Shown: positions 11,101 through 64,000 of the stretch, in pieces
How the letters are laid out: each line of letters opens with the position of its first letter
Numbering within the stretch: position 1 is the first letter of the stretch
Assembly: GCA_963844965.1 (NCBI GenBank)
Contig: CAWJQC010000004.1
Coordinates: forward strand, 32,001-96,000
From: an uncultured bacterium
Lineage (GTDB): Bacteria; Patescibacteriota; Minisyncoccia; UBA6257; 2-01-FULL-56-20
Length of the DNA stretch: 64,000 bases
Direction of reading: 5' to 3'
The notes under the pieces: model-generated
The model's input: the letters and a program-made list of their open reading frames with translations, nothing else
Database searches by the model: none
What the model was told of the DNA's origin: nothing
Program-made: the position numbers and the translations under genes

Positions 11101-11101
11101 G

Positions 11102-11512
11102 TTGCTGGCAATCCGTAAGCCGGATTCTGTCGCGCCTGCCTGTCGGCAGACGATGCGATCATTTATCTGGGCCCTTGATTGCTCGCGGGCTCAAGCGGCA
11201 CTTCCACCTCATCGGCGGACACGGCCTTGCACCCAGTAAGGATTTAGCCGTTTCATCTCCACTTTTTTATCCCTATGGCGGAGCTGGACCGACTAGCTTG
11301 GGATTGGGTCCGTCCGACTTTTTCAAATCGGACCGTTTCTGCTCGCACCTCTATTCTTACGAACGACGGCTGTTAGCCGCTACTATTTTATCCCTCCCCA
11401 GTTTTGCCAGTAATGTCACTGGCAAAACTGGGGAGGGATGGTGTCCGGACTTTCCTCCCTACATTTTCTAGAATTTTAAGAAAATGTAGGGCGATCGCCT
11501 AGATTGCCAGCT
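11102..11512 (-). ncRNA. rnpB: RNase P RNA (bacterial type).
   Basis: rc contains P4 strands GGAGGAAAGTCCGGAC and ACAGAATCCGGCTTA. P1 GCTGGCAATC/GATTGCCAGC. P3 hairpin CCCTACATTTTCT/AGAAAATGTAGGG. A 21-bp P-helix tccctccccagttttgccagt/actggcaaaactggggaggga. Confidence 0.85.
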
Positions 11513-20400: not shown

Positions 20401-20420
20401 TGCCATTGAACTACCTCGAC
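20401..20420 (-). other. tRNA 5'-half-like fragment (acceptor 5' strand + D-arm start).
   Basis: rc GTCGAGGTAGTTCAATGGCA. GTCGAGG is complementary (one G-U) to the CCTCGGC of the fragment at 20149-20179. Confidence 0.4.
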
Positions 20421-51044: not shown

Positions 51045-53149
51045 TTACCGTTTTTTGCCTTCGATAATCAACTGCGCAATGTTCTGCGGCACTGGCTCAT
51101 AATGGTCAAATTCCATCGTGAACGCTCCCCTGCCTTGCGTCATGGAACGCAACTCGGTCGCGTAGCCGAACATTTCCGCGAGCGGAACTTTGGCGTCAAT
51201 CACTTTCACGTTGGGCCGGTCGGAAATTTCCTCAATCCTGCCGCGCTTGGAGTTCAAGTTGCCGCTCACCTCGCCCAAAAATTCTATCGGGATGATAACC
51301 TGAAGCTTCATTATCGGCTCCAATATGACCGGCTTCGCGCGCTTCGCCGCTTCCTGCAGGGCGATGGAGCCAGCAATTTTGAAAGCCGCCTCCGACGAGT
51401 CAACTTCATGGAAAGAGCCGTCATAGAGCGAAACTTCAAGGTCGGTCATCGGGTAGTGGGCAACGACCCCCTTACTCAATGCTTCCACCACACCTTTTTC
51501 CACCGCCGGGATGAATTCGTTCGGAATGATCCCTCCCTGATATCGTCTATGAAAACAAATCCCTTGCCGCGCTCCAAGGACTTCACGCGCAGCCAGACAT
51601 GTCCGTATTGTCCGCGGCCGCCGGATTGCCTGATATATTTGCCTTCCGCCTCCGCTTCGCCCATAATCGTTTCTTTATAGGCAACCTGCGGCCGCCCCAC
51701 CGAACCCTCAACACCGAACTCCCGCTTCATCCTGTCAACAATAATTTCCAGGTGCAACTCGCCCATGCCAGAAATAATCGTCTCGCCAGTTTCCAGGTCG
51801 CCCGCCACGCGGAAAGTCGGGTCTTCTTCCGCCAAGCGGTGCAGGGCAATGCTCATTTTTTCCTGGTCGGCTTTCGTCTTCGGCTCAATGCGAATGCCGA
51901 TCACCGGCTCGGGGAATATGATCTTCTCAAGCACTATCGGCGCGTCGGGACTGCAAAGCGTGTCGCCGGTCGTCGTATTCTTCAAACCGACGATCGCCGC
52001 GATATCTCCGGCATGCACTTCCTCCATTTCTTCGCGGTGGTTGGCGTGCATCCGCACCACGCGGCCGACACGTTCCTGCTGGTCCTTCTTGGAATTCAAA
52101 ACGTACGTGCCGCGCTTCAAAACGCCGGAATAATTCCGGAAATAGGTTAAAGTGCCGACGTACGGGTCTGTCGCAACCTTGAAAGCCAGCGCCGAGAACG
52201 GCTCTTCGTCCTTGGGGTGCCGCACGATATCGGCGCCGCTCTTCGGGTCAATGCCCTTAACCGGAGGAAGGTCCGTCGGCGCGGGCAAATATTCCACAAC
52301 CGAGTCAAGCATAAATTGCACGCCTTTGTTTTTCAGGGCCGAACCGCAAAGCACCGGCACAATTTTGTTGGCAATAACGGCTTTGCGCAAAACGCGGCGC
52401 AAATCTTCAATGTCAAGCTCAGTACCATCCAAATACTTGGTCATCAAGGCATCGTCATTGTCCACAATGCGTTCCACAAGTTCATGCCGCGCCTTCTTCA
52501 CGTGCACTTTCATATTTTCCGGCATCGGAATTTCTGTAATCTTTTCGCCATGTTCACCCTCCGAGCCGTACGCCTTTTCGGTTAAGAGGTCTATCATTCC
52601 CACGAATTCACCCTCAAGGCCGATGTTCAACTGCAAAGGCAGTGCGTTCGGCGTGAGCCGTTCTTTGATTGACTGCAAACTTTTTTCAAAGCTCGCACCC
52701 AAGCGGTCAAGTTTGTTAATAAAGCAAATCCGCGGCACGTGGTACTCATCGGCATAGCGCCAGTTCGTTTCCGACTGCGGCTCAACACCTGCGACGCCAT
52801 CAAAGACGACAACCGCGCCGTCCAAAACGCGGAGCGAACGCTTCACCTCCACCGTAAAGTCAATGTGCCCCGGCGTGTCAATCAAATTTATCATATGCTC
52901 AAATTTTTTGTCGCCCTTGCGGTAAGTCGGAATCCAGAACGCCGTCGTTGCGGCGGAAGTAATCGTAATTCCCCTCTCACGTTCCTGCTCCATCCAATCC
53001 ATCACCGTGTCGCCCGTGTGCACCTCGCCGATTTTGTGACTGACGCCCGTATAAAAAAGCACCCGTTCGCTCACGGTGGTTTTGCCGGCATCTATATGGG
53101 CGATGATGCCGATGTTACGGACCTTCTCGACAGGATACATTCTAGGCAT
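51045..53149 (-). CDS. fusA: Elongation factor G, with a 1-nt frameshift near 51520 splitting it into two ORFs.
   Basis: [25 protein letters not shown].... The C-terminal ORF 51045-51503 continues ...[27 protein letters not shown]. Confidence 0.85.
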
Positions 53150-53363
53150 TGAATTTGAATAAACTTATTTTAATTCTCGCGCATATTGATGCGGGAAAGG
53201 GGTCGGGAAAACGGGAGTTTTCCCGTATAGGAAAAAGGCCGGAGGCCGAGTTAAAAACCGAGAGGTTTTTAAGGAGCGGGTTGCTGTATAGCGACTCGCG
53301 ACCGTCTATATGCGCGATTATTCCTATATTTCTTACTTTTTCTACTGGATATTGTCGCGGCAT
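53142..53363 (-). pseudogene. Re-coded relic of the EF-G N-terminus (first 20 codons) directly upstream of fusA.
   Basis: [21 protein letters not shown] then nonsense. Different codon usage (AT-rich) from the real fusA start. Confidence 0.45.
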
Positions 53364-55018: not shown

Positions 55019-55729
55019 TCAAAATCCGAAAGACTGCCCCGTGATGAGCGTGAAAAGAAACTGAATGATGGGCGCTATGAGCTGAAATCCGAAGAATACG
55101 AAAATGAGAACGAGAATCATGCCGTAGCGCTCCAGGAAATATGCCGCGCGGTAGCTCGCTTCGGTTTTCGGCAAAACGGCGAATAAAACCTTGGAGCCGT
55201 CAAGCGGCGGAATGGGAACAAGGTTGAATACGGCGAGCAGAATGTTAATAAGAGTTATCACAAAAAAAGCATATAAAATCATAGCAACTGGCGAAGTTAG
55301 TAAAGTTAAAACTAGGTCCGTTCTGCCAGAAAGCACGGCTATAGCCATATTATTTCGCAACATTTCGGATACTGGCAAAAACCGACTAGCAATTCCAAAA
55401 AAAATTGCTATTAACAAGTTTGAAGCTGGCCCAGCAACGGCGATTTTTCCAGCTCCAGAAAGAGGATCGCGCAGATTATTCGGGTTGTATGGCACGGGCT
55501 TCGCCCAACCGAAGACCATGCTGCCTCCGGTCAAAAAATAAAGAGAAACCGGCAGCAGAAACGAGCCGAAGAAATCCAGATGTTTTATGGGATTCAAAGT
55601 CAGCCGCCCGGCGAGCCGCGCCGTGGGGTCGCCCAAGTGCTCGGCGACGACGCCGTGCGAAACCTCGTGGATTACGGCGGACATTATGAGTATCGCGAGC
55701 CAAAATAAAAAAGCGATTGTGGATGTCAT
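55019..55729 (-). CDS. M50-family (site-2 protease-like) membrane metalloprotease.
   Basis: HEVSHG zinc motif within TM helices. Confidence 0.6.
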   Translation of the reverse strand: MTSTIAFLFWLAILIMSAVIHEVSHGVVAEHLGDPTARLAGRLTLNPIKHLDFFGSFLLPVSLYFLTGGSMVFGWAKPVPYNPNNLRDPLSGAGKIAVAGPASNLLIAIFFGIASRFLPVSEMLRNNMAIAVLSGRTDLVLTLLTSPVAMILYAFFVITLINILLAVFNLVPIPPLDGSKVLFAVLPKTEASYRAAYFLERYGMILVLIFVFFGFQLIAPIIQFLFTLITGQSFGF

Positions 55730-55829
55730 ATCAACAATAATATCCGAAAACCGCGGTCTTTGCCAATTAAGAAAAAACAAATTAAAATGAGCATGTCGCC
55801 CTCGTGGTGAAACTTGCCCTCCCACCTTT

Positions 55830-55902
55830 GTCCCTGTAGCTCAACGGATAGAGCGTGTGGCTTCGAACCACAAGGTTGCAGGTTCAAATCCTGCCAGGGA
55901 CG
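55830..55902 (+). tRNA. tRNA-Arg (UCG).
   Basis: GTCCCTGTAGCTCAACGGATAGAGCGTGTGGCTTCGAACCACAAGGTTGCAGGTTCAAATCCTGCCAGGGACG. Confidence 0.85.
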
Positions 55903-55928
55903 CAAAGGTGGGAGGGTGAAGATATCAT

Positions 55929-55978
55929 ATGTGGCTTCGAACCACAGGTTCCAGGTTCGAGTCCTGGCGAGGGCACAC
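55929..55978 (+). other. 5'-truncated copy of a tRNA-Arg(UCG) paralog (anticodon arm + T-arm + acceptor 3' strand). Candidate att site.
   Basis: The 17-nt tgtggcttcgaaccaca is identical to the intact gene. The T-arm/acceptor is ccaggttcgagtcctggcgagggca. Confidence 0.6.
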
Positions 55979-56072
55979 ACAACATTTCGTATCGCGGCAT
56001 CGTGGGGGCCGACGCTCTAGCGCGACCCCGAGAGGCCTACCGATACGGAATATCGTCCTCCTTATTTCTCTA

Positions 56073-56324
56073 TTAAGAGCCGGCAAAAATACTTTTGATA
56101 AGGCTTGTAATGCCGCCTGCTATCAGCACGATCACAAAACCGACTGCCGCATACGTAAGGGTCTTCTTCCCTTTCGAAAATTTTTCAGGATCGCCAGCCG
56201 CCGTCATCATTTGAAACCCGCCGACAAGCACCATTATACTTGTGAGCGGCGCTGCAATATCGTAAAAAAGAAATCCCGCCACACTATTCGCGACGGACAC
56301 CAAGCTGCCCCCCCATTCGTACAA
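56073..56324 (-). CDS. Small 2-TM membrane protein (pilin/TrbC-like is speculative).
   Basis: 83-aa ORF with two hydrophobic helices. Confidence 0.35.
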   Translation of the reverse strand: MYEWGGSLVSVANSVAGFLFYDIAAPLTSIMVLVGGFQMMTAAGDPEKFSKGKKTLTYAAVGFVIVLIAGGITSLIKSIFAGS

Positions 56325-56491
56325 TTTGGATCGAACGGATTAAAAAGTTGGTTGGGAGGGCACGCGGCAAAAGCTAACTTCGCGACGGTTAAGGCGCTGA
56401 CTGTTATTAAAATCTTTGTTGTGCGGCGGATAATATGCATATGGATTATTATAGCATACGAGATAGCGTGGCAGAAGCCCATTTTGTTTAG

Positions 56492-57886
56492 CTATTTCTG
56501 CAAGCTCAGAATTTTATTCCTGAACGTCAACTTACTCTTGAAGCAAGATAGCAATTCGCGTTTCTCGACCGTGCTGCCCTTTTTGAGAAGATATTTTGCG
56601 TACGTTTTAAGGTCAATTTCTTTAGTGGCCGCTTTCGATCCTTCTCCCAAGACATCGTTCGCGAATTTGCGATATCGTTCCATCTCGTCTTCGAATTTCT
56701 TCTGCATCCCAATCTCACTGATATCCATCTCGTCAATGATAGCGAGAAGTTGAGCGATCAATTCCTCTTCGCGAATGTATCCGCACTTGCAATCCTTATC
56801 TTTCGAGCGTGAGCATCCATAGTACACGTACCGCGCCGTCGTTCCATCCTTGTGCGCCTTATATTTCTCGCACGCACTGATGCCCGATCCGCATAGGCCG
56901 CACGAGATCAGTTTCGTAAACGAAAATTCCTTTATCTCCGACCTGATGACAAAATCTCGGTGCAGCTGCTCCTGTACTTTATCGAACAGCTCCCGCGAAA
57001 TGATTGCTTCGTGCTTGCCGCTGTACCAGTTACCGCTCTTCAGTGGATACTCAAAGATGCCGCAGTAAAATGGATTTTTGAGGATGATATAAATATTGGA
57101 TAACGAAAGCACTTTCCCATTCTTTGTTCTGAATTTGATTTCCGACTTCAGCCAATGATAAAGCTTCCGGCCCGACCATTGTTCGTCGGCGACTTTCTGG
57201 AGCATTTGCTTGATGACGGGCGCTCGCAGGGGATCAATGATAACTTCACAAGGACGGTCGGTGCTCTTCTCGTTAAGATACCCTGTCGGTGCGATAGACG
57301 GACGCAAACCTTGTTCGCACCGCATCCGTAATCCGCGCTTCACGTTTTCCGATTTGTTATCATTCTCAAGTTTCGCTTGGCTGCACAAAATCATCAACAT
57401 GAATTTCTCGCTCGGCGAGTTCGTGAATTTCTGGCTGAAGGTTCTGATCTCGATAAGTAATTTTTGATCCATCAAGTCCACCAAGCCGCCAAGGTCGCCC
57501 GCGTTGCGGCTCAAGCGATCCGGCGCCCATGTAAGGATACCGTTGAATTCGCCGGAACGAATATCAATAAGCAACTCGTTAAAAATTTTTCGCTGGCCGA
57601 CAGCTTTTGCGGAATGGCTTTCCTTTCTAACTTCGGCGATCTCAAGGTTATCGCGCTCGGCGATTTTCAGCATCTCCTTTATCTGACTATCAATGGAAAG
57701 CACTTGCTGTTCCTCGCTCTCCGTACTTTTCCTCGCATAGAGGCAGTATTTTATTTTTATCGCTTCGGCCTTTGTCGCAGAAACGCCCGACTGATCCCAG
57801 CCCTTTGGTATATTTGTTATTTTCTCCATACCTAAGGGATGCCGCAACGGCGGAAGGAGTCCAGAGCATCCTTGTCGGTAACTCAA
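56492..57886 (-). CDS. Large serine recombinase (resolvase domain + recombinase domain + zinc ribbon).
   Basis: YARKSTESEEQ...SIDSQ catalytic region. C-terminal CGLCGS...YYGC. Confidence 0.8.
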   Translation of the reverse strand: MSYRQGCSGLLPPLRHPLGMEKITNIPKGWDQSGVSATKAEAIKIKYCLYARKSTESEEQQVLSIDSQIKEMLKIAERDNLEIAEVRKESHSAKAVGQRKIFNELLIDIRSGEFNGILTWAPDRLSRNAGDLGGLVDLMDQKLLIEIRTFSQKFTNSPSEKFMLMILCSQAKLENDNKSENVKRGLRMRCEQGLRPSIAPTGYLNEKSTDRPCEVIIDPLRAPVIKQMLQKVADEQWSGRKLYHWLKSEIKFRTKNGKVLSLSNIYIILKNPFYCGIFEYPLKSGNWYSGKHEAIISRELFDKVQEQLHRDFVIRSEIKEFSFTKLISCGLCGSGISACEKYKAHKDGTTARYVYYGCSRSKDKDCKCGYIREEELIAQLLAIIDEMDISEIGMQKKFEDEMERYRKFANDVLGEGSKAATKEIDLKTYAKYLLKKGSTVEKRELLSCFKSKLTFRNKILSLQK

Positions 57887-57985
57887 AACTCGATATCAGG
57901 CGACGAAGGGGCAAAGAAGGCAAGCAGAGTGATTTCCCCAGCCACCCTCTTTAAGACCATTTATAAACGAGCTATAATAATTCTA

Positions 57986-58951
57986 ATGTTCAGTACCAAT
58001 GCGCGACGGGTAATGTGTGTCGTTGCAGGTTTGATTTTGACTTCGCTCGCTTGGATCGGATGCGCGAATTATTTCAACTGGTACGCCGACACAATCGGTC
58101 CCGTGGCCTGGTTTGGCACCCTGTTCCTATTTGCCGCAGCAGGAGTCGGCGCCGGTCTGCTCTTCGAAAAATCGACCAGGGCTCATTATCAGTCTGCAAT
58201 GACGGCAAATCCCCAACTTAAGGAACGAATGGAAACTACTCTCGGAAGGCGCCTCAAGTTTGGCTACGTGCTTGCCGGGCTTTATGTCGCCTATAGGCTT
58301 TTCGGATATTATCTGTTTTTTGTTCTCGGCTTCTCTTTATCTCCAGCGGCCCATCTTCAACTGATTCTTTCGGCGGTCGTTGAGGCGGTTGTCGCCTTAG
58401 TGTGTTTGTTGCTTTATTGGGAGCGCGGAGAAGATGCCAGTACGGCGAATATAAAAAAGCATTTGCTTGTCTATGTTATTTTCTTCTTCGTTCTCGCAGT
58501 GGTTGACGGTGTCGCACTGCTTGTCTTGAAGCCCGCTTCGGCGGTAGTTCAAACACCCGCAACTCTCGAATCCGCGCTCGAAGCATTTTCCGCCGAGGAA
58601 TTTTCCGGGGCAGCAGCAAAAGGGGCGCAAGCGCTACAAGTAAAAGATATGGTCGGGATAGCTTCGGCGCTCCAGAAGATCAATGCTCATTTTAACCAAT
58701 CATTAACCAGCGCGGATCTTTATGACATGCGGTACACCATTAATTGGGGCTTGAATGAAGCAATTGCATATTACCAATTCGAGGCCGACGATCAATCCAT
58801 TTACGCTCTTCAGCTTACCGAAAATCTTGCGACCAGCAATATTGCCGAGAGTTATTATTCGTTTCCGGCAGGTAGCACCTCCGCTCTAACCGGACAGAGG
58901 TATCTCTTCGTGGCAAACGGATTCAAACGCGGCCGAAACTTTGTTCCTTGA
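57986..58951 (+). CDS. Hypothetical 4-TM membrane protein with a C-terminal soluble domain.
   Basis: Start taken at MFSTNARRVMCVVAGLILT. Confidence 0.4.
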   Translation: MFSTNARRVMCVVAGLILTSLAWIGCANYFNWYADTIGPVAWFGTLFLFAAAGVGAGLLFEKSTRAHYQSAMTANPQLKERMETTLGRRLKFGYVLAGLYVAYRLFGYYLFFVLGFSLSPAAHLQLILSAVVEAVVALVCLLLYWERGEDASTANIKKHLLVYVIFFFVLAVVDGVALLVLKPASAVVQTPATLESALEAFSAEEFSGAAAKGAQALQVKDMVGIASALQKINAHFNQSLTSADLYDMRYTINWGLNEAIAYYQFEADDQSIYALQLTENLATSNIAESYYSFPAGSTSALTGQRYLFVANGFKRGRNFVP

Positions 58952-59130
58952 TACTGCAGGTGCTTATCTCAACCTACCTATGCAATCTCCGATTATGAAC
59001 GAAGACCTTTATTATCCTTTAACGGCATCTGCTCCTTCGTGGACAGTGTCCGTCCTCTTTACGAGCACTACGGAGGAGGGACAACAGCAAGTTCACGCTC
59101 TATAATACCTTTGACGCGAATACCGAGCGG

Positions 59131-59526
59131 GTGACGACGAGTACTTACGTTCCCTCCGGAAACTATTTGCCCTTGTCACCACAATCGCCATCCGTGTCGA
59201 TGAACGTTGCTCCGCCTCCCTCAAATTCCTCCCTGAAAATAATTTCTCCTGCCAACGGACAGAAATTGAAGCAGGGGTCAACATACACGATTAGCTGGCA
59301 GTCGTCTGGTGATTTCAATTTTGTCGTCGGGAATATCGTCGCTCCCGTTCCGGGCGAAGGGGGTGTAGGAATATTCCAAGCCCCCGCGACTTCAAGCCGC
59401 TATAGCTGGACCGTGCCGACCGGCTTCCCACCTGGGATGTATAAACTGGGGCTTGCGGGCAGCGATCAAGATTTTGTGAATCATAATTTTGCCTCGTCCA
59501 GTGTTTCAATCTACATCATTCCGTAG
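59131..59526 (+). CDS. Small protein with a Kre9/KNH-like Ser/Thr-rich-family domain.
   Basis: YTISWQSSGDFNFVVGNIV...SRYSWTVPTGFPPGMYKLGL. Confidence 0.4.
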   Translation: MTTSTYVPSGNYLPLSPQSPSVSMNVAPPPSNSSLKIISPANGQKLKQGSTYTISWQSSGDFNFVVGNIVAPVPGEGGVGIFQAPATSSRYSWTVPTGFPPGMYKLGLAGSDQDFVNHNFASSSVSIYIIP

Positions 59527-59649
59527 TAAAACTTATTTAAGATGAGACGCGGCCTTGGGACACCCTTTTAGTGCCTCATTTGTCTCATTTGCATAAAAAA
59601 GCCTTATTTTATGGGCATCGATTTTTCGGAATGAGACACTGCTTTGTAT

Positions 59650-59985
59650 AAATCGGACACGTCCAGAATGGCATTTCTGTGTCCGATTTGTCCGATTTGC
59701 CTCCAAAATGTTACACACCACAAAGTGCAAAAGTTGTGTAACATTTGTAACATTTTGAGGAAAAGCGGGGGGTTGGAACATGGGAATGGGACACGAAAAA
59801 TCGACCTCTTGTGTCCCATTTGTTCCATTTTGTAGAAATGAGCCCTGCTGCGTTACGTTTGCCGCGTTACATTCCGAACGCTCAGAAATCTTTGATTTAT
59901 CTACCTAACAGGACAGCTCCCCAAAAAAGTGCCGCCCTCTCAACTTTTCACATCGCGTTACATTTGTTACATGTTACATTTGATC
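59650..59985. repeat. Iteron-like cluster: several families of short tandem and inverted repeats in an AT-rich intergenic region.
   Basis: AAATCGGACAC-18 nt-GTGTCCGATTT. (TCCGATTTG)x2. TGTTACACA/TGTGTAACA IR. (GTAACATTT)x2. (TCCCATTTG/TTCCATTTT). (GTTACATTT)x3 at 59956-59980. Confidence 0.6.
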
Positions 59986-60188
59986 CCTCCGAAAACCGCG
60001 ACCGTGAGCCTTCCAAGGGAAATTTGGGGTCGTCCTCAAAAACCCTTATACTGATTGCACAGGGAAAGTCCGCATCCGCGAGGGGGCACAACAAAACTAT
60101 ATCTTTTTAGTTACCGCACGGTTGTCGTCGAGACGCGTGAAAAACAAAAAAGGAGCTTGCAGAGCTCCTCTATCTAACTCAACCTAAC

Positions 60189-61013
60189 TCAACGGGATGC
60201 GGCGGAAACATGGGACAGCACGTCCGCAATGGCGTTCACGAGAACTCTTAATCCGTCTCTCCGGTAGAAAATTTCCTCACCGTCTGCCGGTCCGAAGCGA
60301 TCAATGTGGCGGTGAGATTTTTTCCTTATGAAACGACTGTTCGAAAGAGCGTGTAAGTTTACCCTTATGTTCTCAATCATTTTCTCGTGATAAGGGTTCT
60401 CCCTGCCATGCCATTGCTCACAAAGGGCAATCTCGCCTTCGGCGGTCGTAAAAAACAACGACCGAAGGAAGTAATTAAAGTGACGCTCAACGGCAGTCTC
60501 AACCAATCTTTGCAACTCCGGCCCGCTTTTCGCGCTTCCCAAGACCGGTATCGCCGAGATATCGTTACCATACTTCTTTTTGGCCAAGTGGTCCCAGGCA
60601 TAACCAAGAGCGATGAGCCAACGTTTGCCGTGGACGGTGGCAAGGAACACGTCGCCGTACTTCATATATAACCTTTCCGAATTATTGCCGTTGACGGCAT
60701 GGTCGTCAACGATCGCGTAGACAGATGACGGAATGGGCAACTCGATTTTCCTACGGGGACGCAATCTATAATCATCCCAAAGTCCGTGAAATACCCCGTA
60801 GGTAAGTTCCTCAGGCGTAATCAACCGCCTGAACGGATGGACAATAGAACGAAGAGCACCGTGCTTTCCTTCCAGCACTTCCTTCAGGCGTTTTCTAAAA
60901 ATTTTCATCCGACCCCCAATCAAAAGATTTTCACTCAAACAACTGCAAGCAGTATAACGAAATTTTTTGAATTTGGCAAATTTGATATTTTTCGCCGCAG
61001 AAGCCAACGCCAC
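60189..61013 (-). CDS. Hypothetical protein adjacent to the iteron region.
   Basis: 274-aa ORF, no recognised motif. Confidence 0.4.
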   Translation of the reverse strand: MALASAAKNIKFAKFKKFRYTACSCLSENLLIGGRMKIFRKRLKEVLEGKHGALRSIVHPFRRLITPEELTYGVFHGLWDDYRLRPRRKIELPIPSSVYAIVDDHAVNGNNSERLYMKYGDVFLATVHGKRWLIALGYAWDHLAKKKYGNDISAIPVLGSAKSGPELQRLVETAVERHFNYFLRSLFFTTAEGEIALCEQWHGRENPYHEKMIENIRVNLHALSNSRFIRKKSHRHIDRFGPADGEEIFYRRDGLRVLVNAIADVLSHVSAASR

Positions 61014-61236
61014 TTCTCGGCCATAAAAATATCCGCAAACGGCAACCGTTTGCGGATTTCAACTTATCGCGACGCACTCTCAACGCACCTCACGCACAAA
61101 ACACGCACCTGCCGCCAAGGAATCTCGCCCTCAGCGGCGAGAAGAAAATCTCCGGCCAATATAAAGCCCATGGATTCAAGAATTCGCGCGCGGCATTTGC
61201 AACAATTCACTTTCACGCCGACCTTCCTTAGAATTT

Positions 61237-62256
61237 TCAATCGCGCCTCTTCAAAACAGGCGGCTGCTCCTCGCCCTTATTACCTTTATTCTCGCCGCCC
61301 TGCTGTGTCTGGTCGGTCGGCTCGCGCTTCTTAAGCGTCGGCTTTCCTTCGGTTACTTTCCTTCTGCTCGTCACAATTTGCAGCCGATCTTTCACGTCAT
61401 CAAACTCGGATGTAGACACGAGATACTGGTCCTTTTTCGGAAGAATTTCCTTAATCTCCTTCTCTATTTTTATAATCCTGTCACCAGTTGGCGGATGGTC
61501 GGCAAAAACGTTTGGCACGCTTCCGGGTATTCGCCTTTCTTCTTCAATAACCTTGGAAAACATACCTACGTAGGACTCCGGGTCGTAGCCCGCCTTATAC
61601 ATGTACTGCAATCCCAGATAGTCCGCCTCGGCCTCGTCGTTGCGGCTGAATTTTAAAAACGCAATAGGTATGCCAAAGTTCATGGCCTCCATAGTCGCAA
61701 TGTAAACAGGATAAGACATGGGTACGAAGATAAGAGGAATTGTGGCGTATTGGAGGAGCGTGGCTTTTGTCATCTGCGACGCCCAATGCCGGCACGCAAC
61801 GTGCGCAATCTCGTGCGCCATCACTCCGGCAACCTGACTTTCTCCATCGGCAACAAGAAGCAGGCCAGAATTAATATACAAGAACCCGCCAGGGAGAGCG
61901 AAGGCGTTGATTCCGGGCGCATCTATAACTTTCACCGTAAGAGGAACTTTCAGGTCCGAATTCCGCGCAATGTTCTGAGCGACGCGGTTGACATACTCGC
62001 CCACCACAGGGTCGGTCAAAAGTTTCGCCGATTTCTCAACTTCGGTGGAGTATTGTTTCCCGATGGCAATCTCTTTTTCAATGGAAATTATTGACTTGTG
62101 CGCGACCTTGCGGTTGCCGATTTCTTCGGGGTTGTCTTTGCTCTTCTGTCCGTCCGCCGAAGCGCCATAAGCCCTGGGAGGGCACGCCATAATGGCCAAA
62201 AGGATAGCAAGAATAATTACAAGAATCAGGTATCGTTTCTTGACCGTACCGCTCAT
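61237..62256 (-). CDS. M48-family zinc metallopeptidase (HtpX/BepA-like).
   Basis: HEIAHV motif, signal/TM N-terminus. Confidence 0.7.
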   Translation of the reverse strand: MSGTVKKRYLILVIILAILLAIMACPPRAYGASADGQKSKDNPEEIGNRKVAHKSIISIEKEIAIGKQYSTEVEKSAKLLTDPVVGEYVNRVAQNIARNSDLKVPLTVKVIDAPGINAFALPGGFLYINSGLLLVADGESQVAGVMAHEIAHVACRHWASQMTKATLLQYATIPLIFVPMSYPVYIATMEAMNFGIPIAFLKFSRNDEAEADYLGLQYMYKAGYDPESYVGMFSKVIEEERRIPGSVPNVFADHPPTGDRIIKIEKEIKEILPKKDQYLVSTSEFDDVKDRLQIVTSRRKVTEGKPTLKKREPTDQTQQGGENKGNKGEEQPPVLKRRD

Positions 62257-62488
62257 AAGCCACCTCCTTTTCCAGATTCAACCAACTGCTTCCACTCTAC
62301 CAAAAAGCGGGAAAAAATCCAGAACCTGTCCAAGTCGTTGCGGAAAGACGTTTTTGGATATAAAATAATAAAACCGGCCGCGAAGCCCGACATAATCAGC
62401 GCCATTCGGCTTAATAAAAATCCGCCCATAGCTCCCACCTTCGCCGAGGCTTCGGCGGGCAAGCAACTGGCCCCGCACCAAAATTTAT

Positions 62489-62561
62489 CCGCGCGTAGCT
62501 CAACTGGCAGAGCAGCTCCCTCTTAAGGAGACGGTTGCAGGTTCGACTCCTGCCGCGCGGA
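62489..62561 (+). tRNA. tRNA-Lys (CUU).
   Basis: CCGCGCGTAGCTCAACTGGCAGAGCAGCTCCCTCTTAAGGAGACGGTTGCAGGTTCGACTCCTGCCGCGCGGA. Confidence 0.85.
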
Positions 62562-62700
62562 CTGGAAAAATTAAGGATAAATTTGGTGCGGGTTAGACGC
62601 CGCAGCTCTCCTCTTACAACCGCGTAGCGAGGCGAGGATAAAAATCGCCAATTTTTATTTTCGCCGAGCGAGCGGGTGGCGAAACAGGTTTTCGCAGGAA

Positions 62701-62735
62701 AAGGTTCCAGGTTCAAGTCCCTGCTTGCCAGCAGG
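62701..62735 (+). other. Degenerate tRNA T-arm-like fragment. 18/19 match to the fragment at 55945-55963.
   Basis: aaGGTTCCAGGTTCaAGTCCctgcttgcca. Confidence 0.45.
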
Positions 62736-62860
62736 CAGGCAGGTGGGCGGACACAGAATCGAGGATCTCCGGCAGCTCACCTCTTTTTTATTGACAACAC
62801 ACACGTTATTTTTTAATCTAAACAGTAGCGTCTGTTAAAAATTAAAAATCGGGAGCGGCA

Positions 62861-63100
62861 ATGTATAGTCTGTTTGGAAGATTCGAGCGGATAGGCGAAG
62901 CGAAATATTCCGCCGAGGAAATCTGTCTTTTCCGGTTAATCGACCTTCTATTACATCGCGGATGGAGATTCCTGGGATGCCTGTGGAACGGCAAAAAATA
63001 TAAGATAAAAATAAAAAATCTCCGCACCGGCAAAAAACGCTCTTTCAAATCAGGACGCCCATATTGGCTCTCAAGCGATGCCGACGGAAATTTATTCTAA
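62861..63100 (+). CDS. Small hypothetical protein.
   Basis: 79-aa ORF followed by a terminator. Confidence 0.3.
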   Translation: MYSLFGRFERIGEAKYSAEEICLFRLIDLLLHRGWRFLGCLWNGKKYKIKIKNLRTGKKRSFKSGRPYWLSSDADGNLF

Positions 63101-63132
63101 CCCCACCGAATGAACAGGTGGGTTTTTGTTTT
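63101..63132 (+). terminator. Intrinsic terminator.
   Basis: cccacc-gaatgaaca-ggtggg followed by TTTTTGTTTT. Confidence 0.55.
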
Positions 63133-63237
63133 GGGGTAAATTTGGTATAATATGTGCGCGATGTGCTTGGCTCATATTGGGAAAACGTGGCGCCGGACAC
63201 CGAACAAATTCCGTTCTATGTATAAATCATTATGAGT

Positions 63238-64000
63238 GGGATAAAAATAAATCTTTCTCTCAGCGAAATCCCAGGCATCGGCCCGCGTTTTCTGGAACGG
63301 CTGGGAAAACTCGGCATAAAAACCGTCCGTGATCTCATTTATCATTTTCCGGCCCGCTACGAGGATTTCTCCCAGATATACAAAATTTCCGACGTTGAGC
63401 CGGGGGAACAGGTAACAATACGTGGCGTTGTTGAAGACACCAAACTGCGGCGGACTTGGAGAAAACACATGACAATCGCCGAAGCCCTGATCCGCGACGA
63501 TTCCGGAACGATACGCGCCATCTGGTTCAACCAACCATATGTTTTGAACACTCTGCGGGTCGGGCGCACGGCGAATTTCGCAGGCAAAATATCCATATCG
63601 GACGAGGACGAAATTTATTTGAGCCACCCGGCTTATGAAATCGTCGGCAGTCGGGAGTCGGGAACGGAGAAGCAAGAAACAAAACATACAGCGCGGCTCG
63701 TCCCCATTTATCCCGAAACGCGCGGCCTCACATCCAAGGGGTTGAGATATCTGATCCAGCCAATTCTGAAAAACAGCGAACAGCTGGAGGAATGGCTGCC
63801 GCCGGAAGTTCTGCGCGAAAATAATTTTCCCGAAATAAACCTTGCGCTCAGATCCATACACTTCCCCGAAAAAACCGAGGATGCTCTTGTCGCGAAAAAA
63901 CGCTTCACTTTTGAAAACCTGTTCCTGCTGCAACTCGCCAATCTTGAACAAAAATTGAAACTCGCGCGCGAAAAAGCGCCAGTGATCAAAACCGACATAG
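63238..64000 (+). CDS. recG: ATP-dependent DNA helicase RecG, N-terminal part. It continues beyond the window and is not in the ORF track because no stop lies inside the window.
   Basis: MSGIKINLSLSEIPGIGPRFLERLGKLGIKTVRDLIYHFPARYEDFS...GEQVTIRGVV (wedge domain). Confidence 0.7.

Follow-up and report, generated by a model that had tools for sequence, protein, structure and literature searches.

The stretch of DNA analyzed here, hereafter called the window, comprises 64,000 nucleotides from an uncultured bacterium of the Patescibacteriota (contig CAWJQC010000004.1, positions 32,001 to 96,000), and all positions given below refer to it unless another locus is named. Its principal feature is, with a probability of about 0.8, an integrative element of approximately 4.1 kb at 55977–60083 that would be mobilized by its own large serine recombinase. 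The element is docked on the 3′ end of a tRNA-Arg gene, called here the outer tRNA-Arg, within which a second tRNA-Arg gene is nested. An initial annotation had recognized an integrated mobile element inserted at the 3′ end of a tRNA gene, and this has held up; the 6.7-kb island that it drew had the wrong borders and the wrong logic, as the homology of sister elements ends at 60089 and a relative keeps the M48 peptidase and tRNA-Lys genes that the island was to include. The observations that carry our reading are the borders of the element, the differing genomic contexts of its relatives, an unoccupied site in a related genome, the protein family of the recombinase, and the association of that family with tRNA genes.

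The borders were set by comparison with the two nearest loci, which encode the closest relatives of the recombinase: L001 (91% identity), where the gene lies between dnaJ and tRNA-Lys(TTT), and L003 (84%), where it lies downstream of M50, tRNA-Arg(TCG) and tRNA-Lys(CTT). DNA shared with them in blastn is confined to three blocks (55946–56033, 56482–57940, and 59542–60090); L001 and L003 share the identical three blocks with each other, with homology ending at the 5′ end of the tRNA. At the left junction (alignment A1) the common sequence ACACAACATTTCGTATCGC... starts right after the ...GGGCAC of the tRNA, and at the right junction (alignment A2) all three elements terminate in ...AAAGTCCGCAYCCGYGAGGGGGCAC / ...GGGGGCAC, followed by complete divergence. 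Sister homology ends at 55976/55977 and at 60089/60090, in each case beside a copy of GGGCAC on the plus strand: the core of the left junction (attL, 55971–55976; A1 and A2) and that of the right junction (attR, 60084–60089), which closes the three-element homology in A2. Beyond the right core the window reads AACAAAAC, L001 ACTGCCCG, and L003 CATCCACA, and GGGCAC is the only sequence common to both junctions in all three. Because sister homology stops at both copies of GGGCAC, the element as delimited by these alignments is the approximately 4.1 kb bracketed by the two cores, not 6.7 kb.

Both ends of the element are conserved. The left end (P′ arm plus flank, 55977–56072, plus strand, ACACAACATTTCGTATCGCGGCATCG...GCGCGACC) is 86–89% identical to the sequence immediately 3′ of tRNA-Lys in L001, L002, and L003, and it holds the family motif TATCG..GAC about 14 nt past the discriminator. 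The right end (P arm block, 59946–60083, plus strand) terminates in ...CTGATTGCACAGGGAAAGTCCGCATCCGCGAGG with 81–88% identity in the same three loci, and its final ~30 nt resemble the 3′ end of a tRNA (GTCC ... GAGGGGGCAC). No long tRNA-derived direct repeat was found at the borders of the element, where the junctions share 6 nt only, which is what a serine recombinase would be expected to leave. The recombinase and the ends are thus found with defined end points in three unrelated contexts (the window, L001/L002, and L003), which marks this DNA as a mobile element. The three target tRNAs, tRNA-Arg(TCG), tRNA-Lys(CTT), and tRNA-Lys(TTT), have a 3′ end in common, ...TCCTGG(C/T)G(A/G)GGGCAC, and the specificity of the element appears to be for this shared sequence rather than for the identity of the tRNA.

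A comparison with relatives lacking the island had been proposed in the initial annotation, and it yielded an unoccupied site in L097, the one syntenic contig returned by a metagenome scan with the M48 protein. The gene order there is S7, S12, M50, tRNA-Arg(tcg), 378 bp, M48, tRNA-Lys(ctt), a small open reading frame (ORF), and RecG, with identities to the window of 93% for S12, 88% for S7, and 67% for M50, M48, and RecG. The flanking synteny is kept, and the recombinase, the pilin, the membrane protein, the Ig-like protein, and the orphan ORF of the window are missing. Since L097 keeps M48 and tRNA-Lys in order without the element, both are host genes, and the right border of the 6.7-kb island is refuted.

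The recombinase gene (56492–57829, minus strand, 445 aa) is convergent with the tRNA. Its product shows the Pfam domains Resolvase (2.2e-19), Recombinase (PF07508, 1.3e-14), and Zn_ribbon_recom (PF13408, 8.8e-08), and YARKSTE (R33, S35), D104-R105-L-S-R108 (DRLSR), and four cysteines are invariant in 21 family members; the roles of these residues we take to be those known from gamma-delta resolvase. Residues 33–393 match SPbeta SprA/YokA in PDB (9dxh, 6e-11), and further matches are to the catalytic domain of TP901-1 integrase (2.8e-07) and to PHROG 95, annotated “integrase” (1.4e-64). Judged by its catalytic domain, its C-terminal domains, and these homologies, the enzyme is a bona fide large serine recombinase. 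The initial annotation was right in calling it a serine and not a tyrosine integrase, and among nine ORFs scanned from 55019 to 63999 none had a Phage_integrase (tyrosine recombinase) domain. The enzyme is predicted to recombine attP with attB through a 2-bp crossover, the junctions delimiting a core of 6 nt only. Immediately upstream of the gene lies a conserved region (57830–57940) with 83% identity in L001/L002, 76% in L003, and weaker similarity in five further loci; it overlaps the start of the membrane-protein ORF and is a probable promoter or 5′ leader.

Close relatives of the recombinase number thousands. The top 120 matches are all 64–100% identical and are spread across Patescibacteria classes, and in a scan of one genome per species, relatives were encoded in at least 570 GTDB species genomes. 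For a survey of the family 80 loci were fetched, and counts were made over 81 loci. In 44 of 44 cases the tRNA met first downstream of the recombinase gene lies on the opposite strand and is thus convergent with it, and equal lengths of sequence hold 71 tRNAs downstream of the gene vs. 5 upstream. The target tRNAs include Ser (four anticodons), Gln, Arg, Lys, Val, Asn, Asp, Glu, and Trp. In many loci TATCG-N(4-6)-GAC(C) stands ~14 nt past the discriminator irrespective of the tRNA, and other loci have either of two alternative motifs. The main motif, [AT]ATCG..GAC, follows 19 of the 44 convergent tRNAs in fixed register, vs. 1 of the 32 remaining tRNAs at these loci. It is because of this fixed register after target tRNAs that the end of the element can be said to abut the end of the tRNA throughout the family. 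A transfer-messenger RNA (tmRNA) was not found in any locus by ARAGORN. Where a convergent tRNA is lacking (22 loci), a T-arm regular expression detected possible relics in 4 loci, most having none within 7 kb. Relatives of the recombinase also occur on 64 predicted viral contigs, and therefore some family members may be prophages. The family is apparently a group of tRNA-targeting serine-integrase elements spread across the candidate phyla radiation (CPR) and so far undescribed; the literature, of which our coverage was incomplete and which is weak evidence on this point, gave no description of this CPR recombinase family.

Some observations on individual loci of the family may be added. At L016 (10075–10330, minus strand), GGTTCCAGGTTCGAGTCCTGGCCGCGGAGCA, a T-arm with an acceptor-like end, closes a structured-looking RNA to which neither ARAGORN nor Rfam gives a name; 23 nt are identical to the outer tRNA-Arg of the window, and the target at this locus may be a tmRNA of unusual form or some other RNA gene. 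Of 9 recombinase loci scanned, 5 have LOOT RNA (RF03000, 69–88 bits) within or next to them (L017, 6686–6814; L020, 6680–6808; L027, 6665–6786; L037, 4266–4387; L043, 5418–5533). In three of the five it lies ~200 nt upstream of the recombinase gene and divergent from it. Within 7 kb these loci lack a convergent tRNA, and Rfam detected no LOOT RNA in the element of the window. The LOOT-bearing loci may form a distinct subfamily and could supply the genomic context of LOOT. The sole tRNA outside the recombinase-convergent set with a TATCG..GAC end motif after it is at L065 (9616–9703, plus strand), where the motif may be the mark of a second element, or of a remnant, on the opposite side of that locus. 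Two copies of the recombinase family occur on one predicted viral contig in each of five IMG/VR pairs of loci (L169/L176, L173/L188, L200/L205, L206/L208, and L226/L227).

From the junctions a mechanism can be proposed. The excised circle would carry an attP made up of the two ends of the element (...GTCCGCATCCGCGAGGGGGCAC / ACACAACATTTCGTATCG...), and the recombinase would pair it with attB, the left half of which (B arm) would be the last ~25 nt of the tRNA gene. This arm would contain the 3′ strand of the T-stem, the acceptor strand, and the discriminator, the right half of attB being poorly conserved. Strand exchange would probably occur in or beside GGGCAC, and a crossover at that position would leave the tRNA unchanged and hence no long direct repeat. 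After integration the recombinase gene would stand convergent with the tRNA. The P arm, GTCC-N11-GGGGCAC, would resemble the B arm, GTCC-N6-GGGCAC, with its distal motif shifted outward by ~6 nt, and such a shift is consistent with the known attP and attB half-sites of serine integrases. As the element has no replication, packaging, or transfer genes, its movement between cells would probably depend on a helper or on DNA uptake. The attP sequence and any current activity of the element are, like the role of the hairpin array described below, predictions from sequence.

Several points weigh against this account. The host half-site downstream of the core (B′) has no obvious conservation in the window, L001, L003, and L097. 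Dyad symmetry was sought in attP, and the CCGCGA/TCGCGG of the window is not kept in L001 or L003. A directionality factor was not identified, and excision and the circular form are predicted only. The unoccupied site is that of a relative, not of the same species. A further 1.1 kb (60090–61236), including the orphan gene, is also missing from L097, so that the insertion relative to L097 exceeds the element set by sister homology. The target tRNA is a disrupted gene, and the element may have arrived before or after its splitting. The base composition that the initial annotation had suggested as a check gives no signal, the region having a GC content of 0.44–0.50 like its flanks.

Within the element a conserved backbone can be distinguished, which consists of both ends, the recombinase, the ~110-bp region upstream of it, and a ~550-bp array of hairpins and 9-mers, together with two slots of variable cargo. 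The cargo is wholly different among the three sister elements and is not common to other loci. In the window it comprises an 83-aa protein with two transmembrane segments (56073–56324, minus strand), which belongs to the T4SS_pilin family (PF18895, 1.4e-11) and is absent from the sister elements; a membrane protein of at most 370 aa with an uncertain true start (ORF at 57839–58951, plus strand), which has no family match and of which only the first 34 codons, within the conserved upstream region, match sister loci; and a 131-aa protein with a weak Ig-like match (59131–59526, plus strand; Kre9_KNH/Big_7). The gene content had been described correctly in the initial annotation, but the Kre9/KNH-like assignment is weak, as its Pfam matches (E values of 1.5e-4 and 3.1e-4) both fall slightly short of the curated cut-offs. 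Among 5 proteins of the window and 5 cargo proteins of the sisters, the integrase was the only one with a PHROG match. Neither phage structural or packaging genes nor a relaxase or type IV secretion system (T4SS) module was found that would make the element a prophage, an integrative and conjugative element, or an integrative and mobilizable element; the only hit in that direction is the Pfam match to T4SS_pilin, and an origin of transfer is not recognizable by sequence alone.

The repeat cluster noticed earlier at 59.5–60.0 kb is real. It is a non-coding array of ~6 units (59533–59995), each with a hairpin and an extra direct copy of a 9-mer (AATG-xxxx-CAC ... GTG-x′x′x′x′-CATTT-GT-x′x′x′x′-CATTT), and it is the only tandem 9-mer cluster within the window. 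Three units fold as DNA far better than shuffled sequences (z = −4.5, −3.0, and −4.9). The array is kept in L001 and L003, and its variable core switches in every copy of a unit together (alignment A4), examples between the window and these loci being TTAC/TAAC vs. GGCA/TGCC and GGGAC/GTCCC vs. GTTAC/GTAAC. Rfam gave only sub-threshold hits in the interior of the element, a meaningless miRNA model and the ssNA-helicase motif, for which the score of 21.3 bits is well under the cut-off of 41.5 for membership. A scan for 9-mer arrays in other family members gave coding repeats only. An origin, a transfer site, a packaging site, or an RNA are candidate roles for the array.

The tRNA gene on which the element is docked has a structure of its own. 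The inner, intact tRNA-Arg(TCG) (55830–55903, plus strand; called by ARAGORN, 74.5 bits in Rfam) is presumably the functional copy. The initial annotation reported a second tRNA-Arg-like copy behind it, and this is real: Rfam gives 30.2 bits at 55915–55967, covering model positions 9–63. Its description as truncated at the 5′ end did not stand, for the missing piece lies upstream of the inner gene at 55798–55813 (plus strand; GCCCTCG, TG, GTGAAAC, i.e., the acceptor strand and the start of the D-stem and loop). The 3′ piece (55922–55975, plus strand) supplies the 3′ strand of the D-stem, the anticodon arm, the T-arm, the acceptor, and the discriminator. GCCCTCG at 55798–55804 pairs 7/7 with CGAGGGC at 55968–55974, and with ~55814–55921 deleted in silico, ARAGORN calls a tRNA-Arg(tcg) whose start is at 55798. 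A placement of the outer acceptor as GCCCTCC at 55816–55822 was tried and rejected, GCCCTCG at 55798–55804 being correct. Since the outer halves pair and the deletion restores a tRNA, the inner tRNA-Arg sits in the D-loop of an ancestral gene. The spliced outer tRNA-Arg is 83.6% identical to the tRNA-Arg of L003, and the inner gene 75.3%; the odd D-arm of the outer gene, GTGAAAC..ATATCA, is also that of the tRNA-Arg genes of L097 and L003. A perfect inverted repeat of 13–14 bp encloses the inner gene, with its arms at 55817–55829 (CCCTCCCACCTTT) and 55904–55916 (AAAGGTGGGAGGG), both listed on the plus strand; as a pair of 14 nt it is 100% complementary.

Two further tRNA genes of the window are nested in the same manner. 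The intact tRNA-Lys(CTT) at 62489–62562 stands between an outer 5′ piece at 62422–62434 (CCGCCCA-TA-GCTC, CCGCCCATAGCTC) and, outside the element, a T-arm-like relic with acceptor and discriminator (62702–62751, plus strand), in which TGGGCGG at 62744–62750 pairs 7/7 with the acceptor strand CCGCCCA at 62422–62428. For tRNA-Thr(TGT), which is on the minus strand, the outer pieces are at 20420–20401 (5′) and 20180–20151 (3′), and their acceptor pairs 7/7 with one G-U pair. An equivalent relic, ...GTTCGATTCCTCCTGGGCGGAC, occurs in L097 (9400–9860) ~190 nt past its own tRNA-Lys; the nesting at tRNA-Lys is therefore old and is supported by an independent assembly. In L073 (13180–13480) the interruption of a tRNA-Gly(CCC) follows the anticodon loop and is accompanied by a duplication of 5 bp (CCAAG), and in-silico deletion restores its ARAGORN call; in L005 (13360–13630) the outer 5′ half of a tRNA-Cys is broken in the anticodon loop, and a complementary 3′ acceptor strand was read by eye ~125 nt further on. 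The three older genes of the window (Arg, Lys, and Thr) are thus interrupted in the D-loop, and those of L073 (Gly) and L005 (Cys) in the anticodon loop.

Flanking inverted repeats of at least 11 nt were found at 6 of the 177 tRNAs examined, 3 of these in the window, and the maximum in shuffled sequences was 10. The ends of the inserts are alike (CCCTCCCACC, CCCGCACC, CCCGCGCACC, and CCTCACACC). In 2.5 Mb, CCCGCAC(C)AAAA is confined to the two cassette ends and CCTC[CA]CACCT has 3 unrelated matches besides, so that a common terminal sequence is no more than suggested. A blastn search for high-copy relatives of the inserts gave a single 36-nt match, between an insert in fusA and L097. No group I intron (Intron_gpI, E ≤ 0.5) was detected in 55700–56100, in 62380–62900, or in the whole window. 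The outer genes are decaying, tRNA-Thr having lost its anticodon arm and tRNA-Lys having indels, and their appearance is that of replaced pseudogenes, not of spliced genes. We tentatively suggest, as a possibility to be held with some doubt, that two layers of mobile DNA directed at tRNA genes are superimposed here, namely the serine-integrase element and tRNA cassettes with inverted repeats that would have entered a loop of older isoacceptor genes and replaced their function. With similar caution, such cassettes might account for Arg, Lys, and Thr(TGT) of the window as well as Gly of L073, Cys of L005, and Lys of L097. If this were true, a tRNA cassette would be “addictive,” in that its loss would cost the host the tRNA, and it would amount to a type of bacterial mobile element, or of gene replacement, for which we found no description. 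The literature, again incompletely covered and weak as evidence, gave no description of tRNA genes nested in tRNA genes of CPR bacteria.

A duplication was observed in the gene for elongation factor G (fusA), the first 60 nt of which are present twice (53090–53363, minus strand). The ancestral-looking copy follows the ancestral upstream flank and breaks off after codon 20; an insert of ~150 nt follows, and then a diverged 5′ end that leads into the gene. A small hairpin of 36 nt in the insert (53192–53227) is 97% identical to 9613–9648 of L097, inside the insert by tRNA-Lys. The duplicated 5′ end may reflect the same process acting on a protein gene.

The alternatives concern mainly the extent of the insertion and the nature of its enzyme. 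The reading of the initial annotation, an island of ~6.7 kb from the tRNA-Arg fragment to 62720, bounded by 19-nt direct repeats and including the recombinase, the orphan gene, M48, and tRNA-Lys, is almost certainly wrong. Its 19-mer, AGGTTCCAGGTTCGAGTCC, lies at 55946–55964, one base off the position that had been implied; the 18/19 recurrence at 62702–62720 is real and above chance (0.01 expected in shuffles), and the recombinase does adjoin the proximal repeat. Yet all five matches in the window with three or fewer mismatches are T-arm regions of tRNAs, so the 19-mer is no element-specific repeat. The distal copy, without an Rfam tRNA match even at E ≤ 10, is the T-arm of the older, disrupted tRNA-Lys (5′ acceptor at 62422–62428; relic also in L097) and not an attachment site. 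Sister homology ends at 60089, L097 has M48, tRNA-Lys, and RecG in order and free of the element, and serine recombinases do not leave long direct repeats; it was the search for a direct repeat of the tyrosine type that led to the wrong border. A composite or tandem insertion reaching from 55977 to ~61236, in which the 4.1-kb element would be joined by an older or unrelated piece with the orphan gene, is unlikely, though it has points in its favor: L097 lacks the entire stretch from tRNA-Arg to M48, bar an unrelated small ORF, the orphan 239-aa protein is free of homologues, and tRNA sites often gather tandem elements. On the other side, 60090–61236 showed neither a second att-like core nor a tRNA relic or integrase remnant, the orphan gene may be lineage-specific host DNA, and L097 is too distant for a decision.

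The recombinase might instead be a host enzyme, domesticated and passed on vertically, such as an invertase or excisionase that controls surface-protein genes. Its unusually high conservation in Patescibacteria (64–100% in the top 120 matches), its presence in at least 570 species genomes, and its pilin, membrane, and Ig-like neighbors would agree with such a role, which is nevertheless extremely unlikely in view of copies 91% and 84% identical in three unrelated contexts with conserved ends. The gene is also missing from the syntenic L097, the host M50 is 54% identical between the window and L003 where the recombinase is 84% identical, relatives lie on 64 predicted viral contigs, and no inverted att-like sites flank the cargo. 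As for the tRNA fragments, an intact tRNA followed by a downstream 3′ fragment is the classic picture of attL and attR, and tRNA genes are hot spots of integration (PMC7192596), from which one could take the fragments as scars of tyrosine-integrase islands that were later deleted. This is very unlikely, since each old 3′ piece (Arg, Lys, and Thr) has an upstream 5′ partner with 7/7 acceptor pairing, for which a single integration at the 3′ end is insufficient; the pieces moreover bracket a complete new tRNA with a 13–14-bp inverted repeat, and no tyrosine integrase is present. The integrative element at 55977–60083 with its own serine recombinase remains the preferred reading.

Around this element the gene order is M50, tRNA-Arg(TCG), the second Arg-like stretch, the pilin-family gene, the recombinase, the membrane-protein gene, the Ig-like gene, the repeats, the orphan gene, M48, tRNA-Lys(CTT), the T-arm-like relic, a small ORF, and recG. 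The M50 protease gene (55019–55729), the orphan ORF (60189–60908, with a product given as 239/274 aa), and the M48 peptidase gene (61237–62256) are all on the minus strand. Relatives of all window genes studied are from CPR metagenome-assembled genomes. The orphan 239-aa protein had no homologue but itself among 5.8 billion proteins; exact-sequence look-ups left M50, the recombinase, and M48 of the window unmatched, and for the orphan protein they led to a single 2.4-kb contig of the same strain, 99.96% identical. The M48 peptidase is 60–72% identical to proteins of 79 metagenome contigs (loci L085–L164), many of which have 77-nt tRNA-Val(tac) and tRNA-Asp(gtc) genes downstream of it and none of which shows CPR synteny; with 67% identity, L097, the sole CPR relative in synteny, comes no nearer. 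Transfer between phyla may be the cause of this pattern of matches. Elsewhere in the window, the 16S rRNA gene (1–2074) measures 2074 nt against a model of 1533 nt, with ~540 nt of insertions, and the RNase P RNA (11101–11510) barely passes the Rfam threshold (100.2 vs. 100 bits). The ORF for elongation factor G (51476–53149) ends at 557 aa with an aberrant C-terminal tail, an indication of some frameshift, insertion, or assembly error deeper in the gene.

Serine integrases are prized tools of genome engineering that in nature nearly always target protein-coding genes or intergenic sites. A family that docks on the terminal ~25 nt of tRNA genes would open up a new class of target, and its junctions supply ready-made predictions of attP and attB, with one subfamily using three tRNAs with the same 3′ end. 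CPR bacteria have tiny genomes and are thought to be limited in mobile DNA; the family may be a main vehicle for the exchange of surface and pilin genes among them. Because old tRNA genes persist as split relics, tRNA-like repeats are unreliable as island borders in these genomes. If nesting proves general, it would bear on the replacement of essential RNA genes in reduced genomes and on completeness estimates based on tRNAs.

The element can finally be compared with known systems. The large serine integrases of phiC31, Bxb1, TP901-1, and A118 and SprA of SPbeta share the domain architecture, the junctions of few bases, and the location of the integrase gene at one end of the element. Elements of the phiC31 type target protein-coding genes or intergenic sites, whereas the CPR family adjoins tRNA 3′ ends; the window element is also unlike serine-integrase prophages in its 4.1 kb without phage genes, and its recombinase has low identity to characterized enzymes (E ~1e-10). 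SCCmec with its Ccr recombinases resembles it as a non-phage, non-conjugative element with a large serine recombinase, inserted at the 3′ end of a housekeeping gene that is kept working, and with variable cargo on a conserved backbone. It differs in its target (rlmH/orfX), its size of 20–60 kb, its often two recombinases, and its phylum. Tyrosine-integrase islands (P4-like; Islander/TIGER) likewise use the 3′ part of a tRNA, keep the integrase by the tRNA and the tRNA functional, and use several tRNAs per clade. In contrast, their enzyme is of another family, and they carry a tRNA fragment in attP and a direct repeat of 15–50 nt, where the window element has a 6-nt core and a tRNA that is entirely host-derived. 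The use of tRNA or tmRNA genes was reported for 14 of 297 serine-integrase elements vs. 44.5% for tyrosine integrases, and experimental proof was called for (PMC7192596). The hairpin array is like the ssNA-helicase motif (RF03070) and TIGR arrays (PMC12045711) in combining hairpins with tandem short repeats (ATGTAACATGTAACA) and variable palindromic cores. A TIGR-Tas array as an identity for 59533–59995 was rejected, there being no Nop-domain (Tas) protein or helicase in the element. Group I introns have been described in tRNA genes of Patescibacteria (PMC13011429). With tRNA introns, including those of archaea, and with the split tRNAs of Nanoarchaeum, the nested tRNAs have in common the interruption of a loop and its complementary bounds; unlike tRNA introns, the nested insert of ~100–150 nt is a complete isoacceptor gene.

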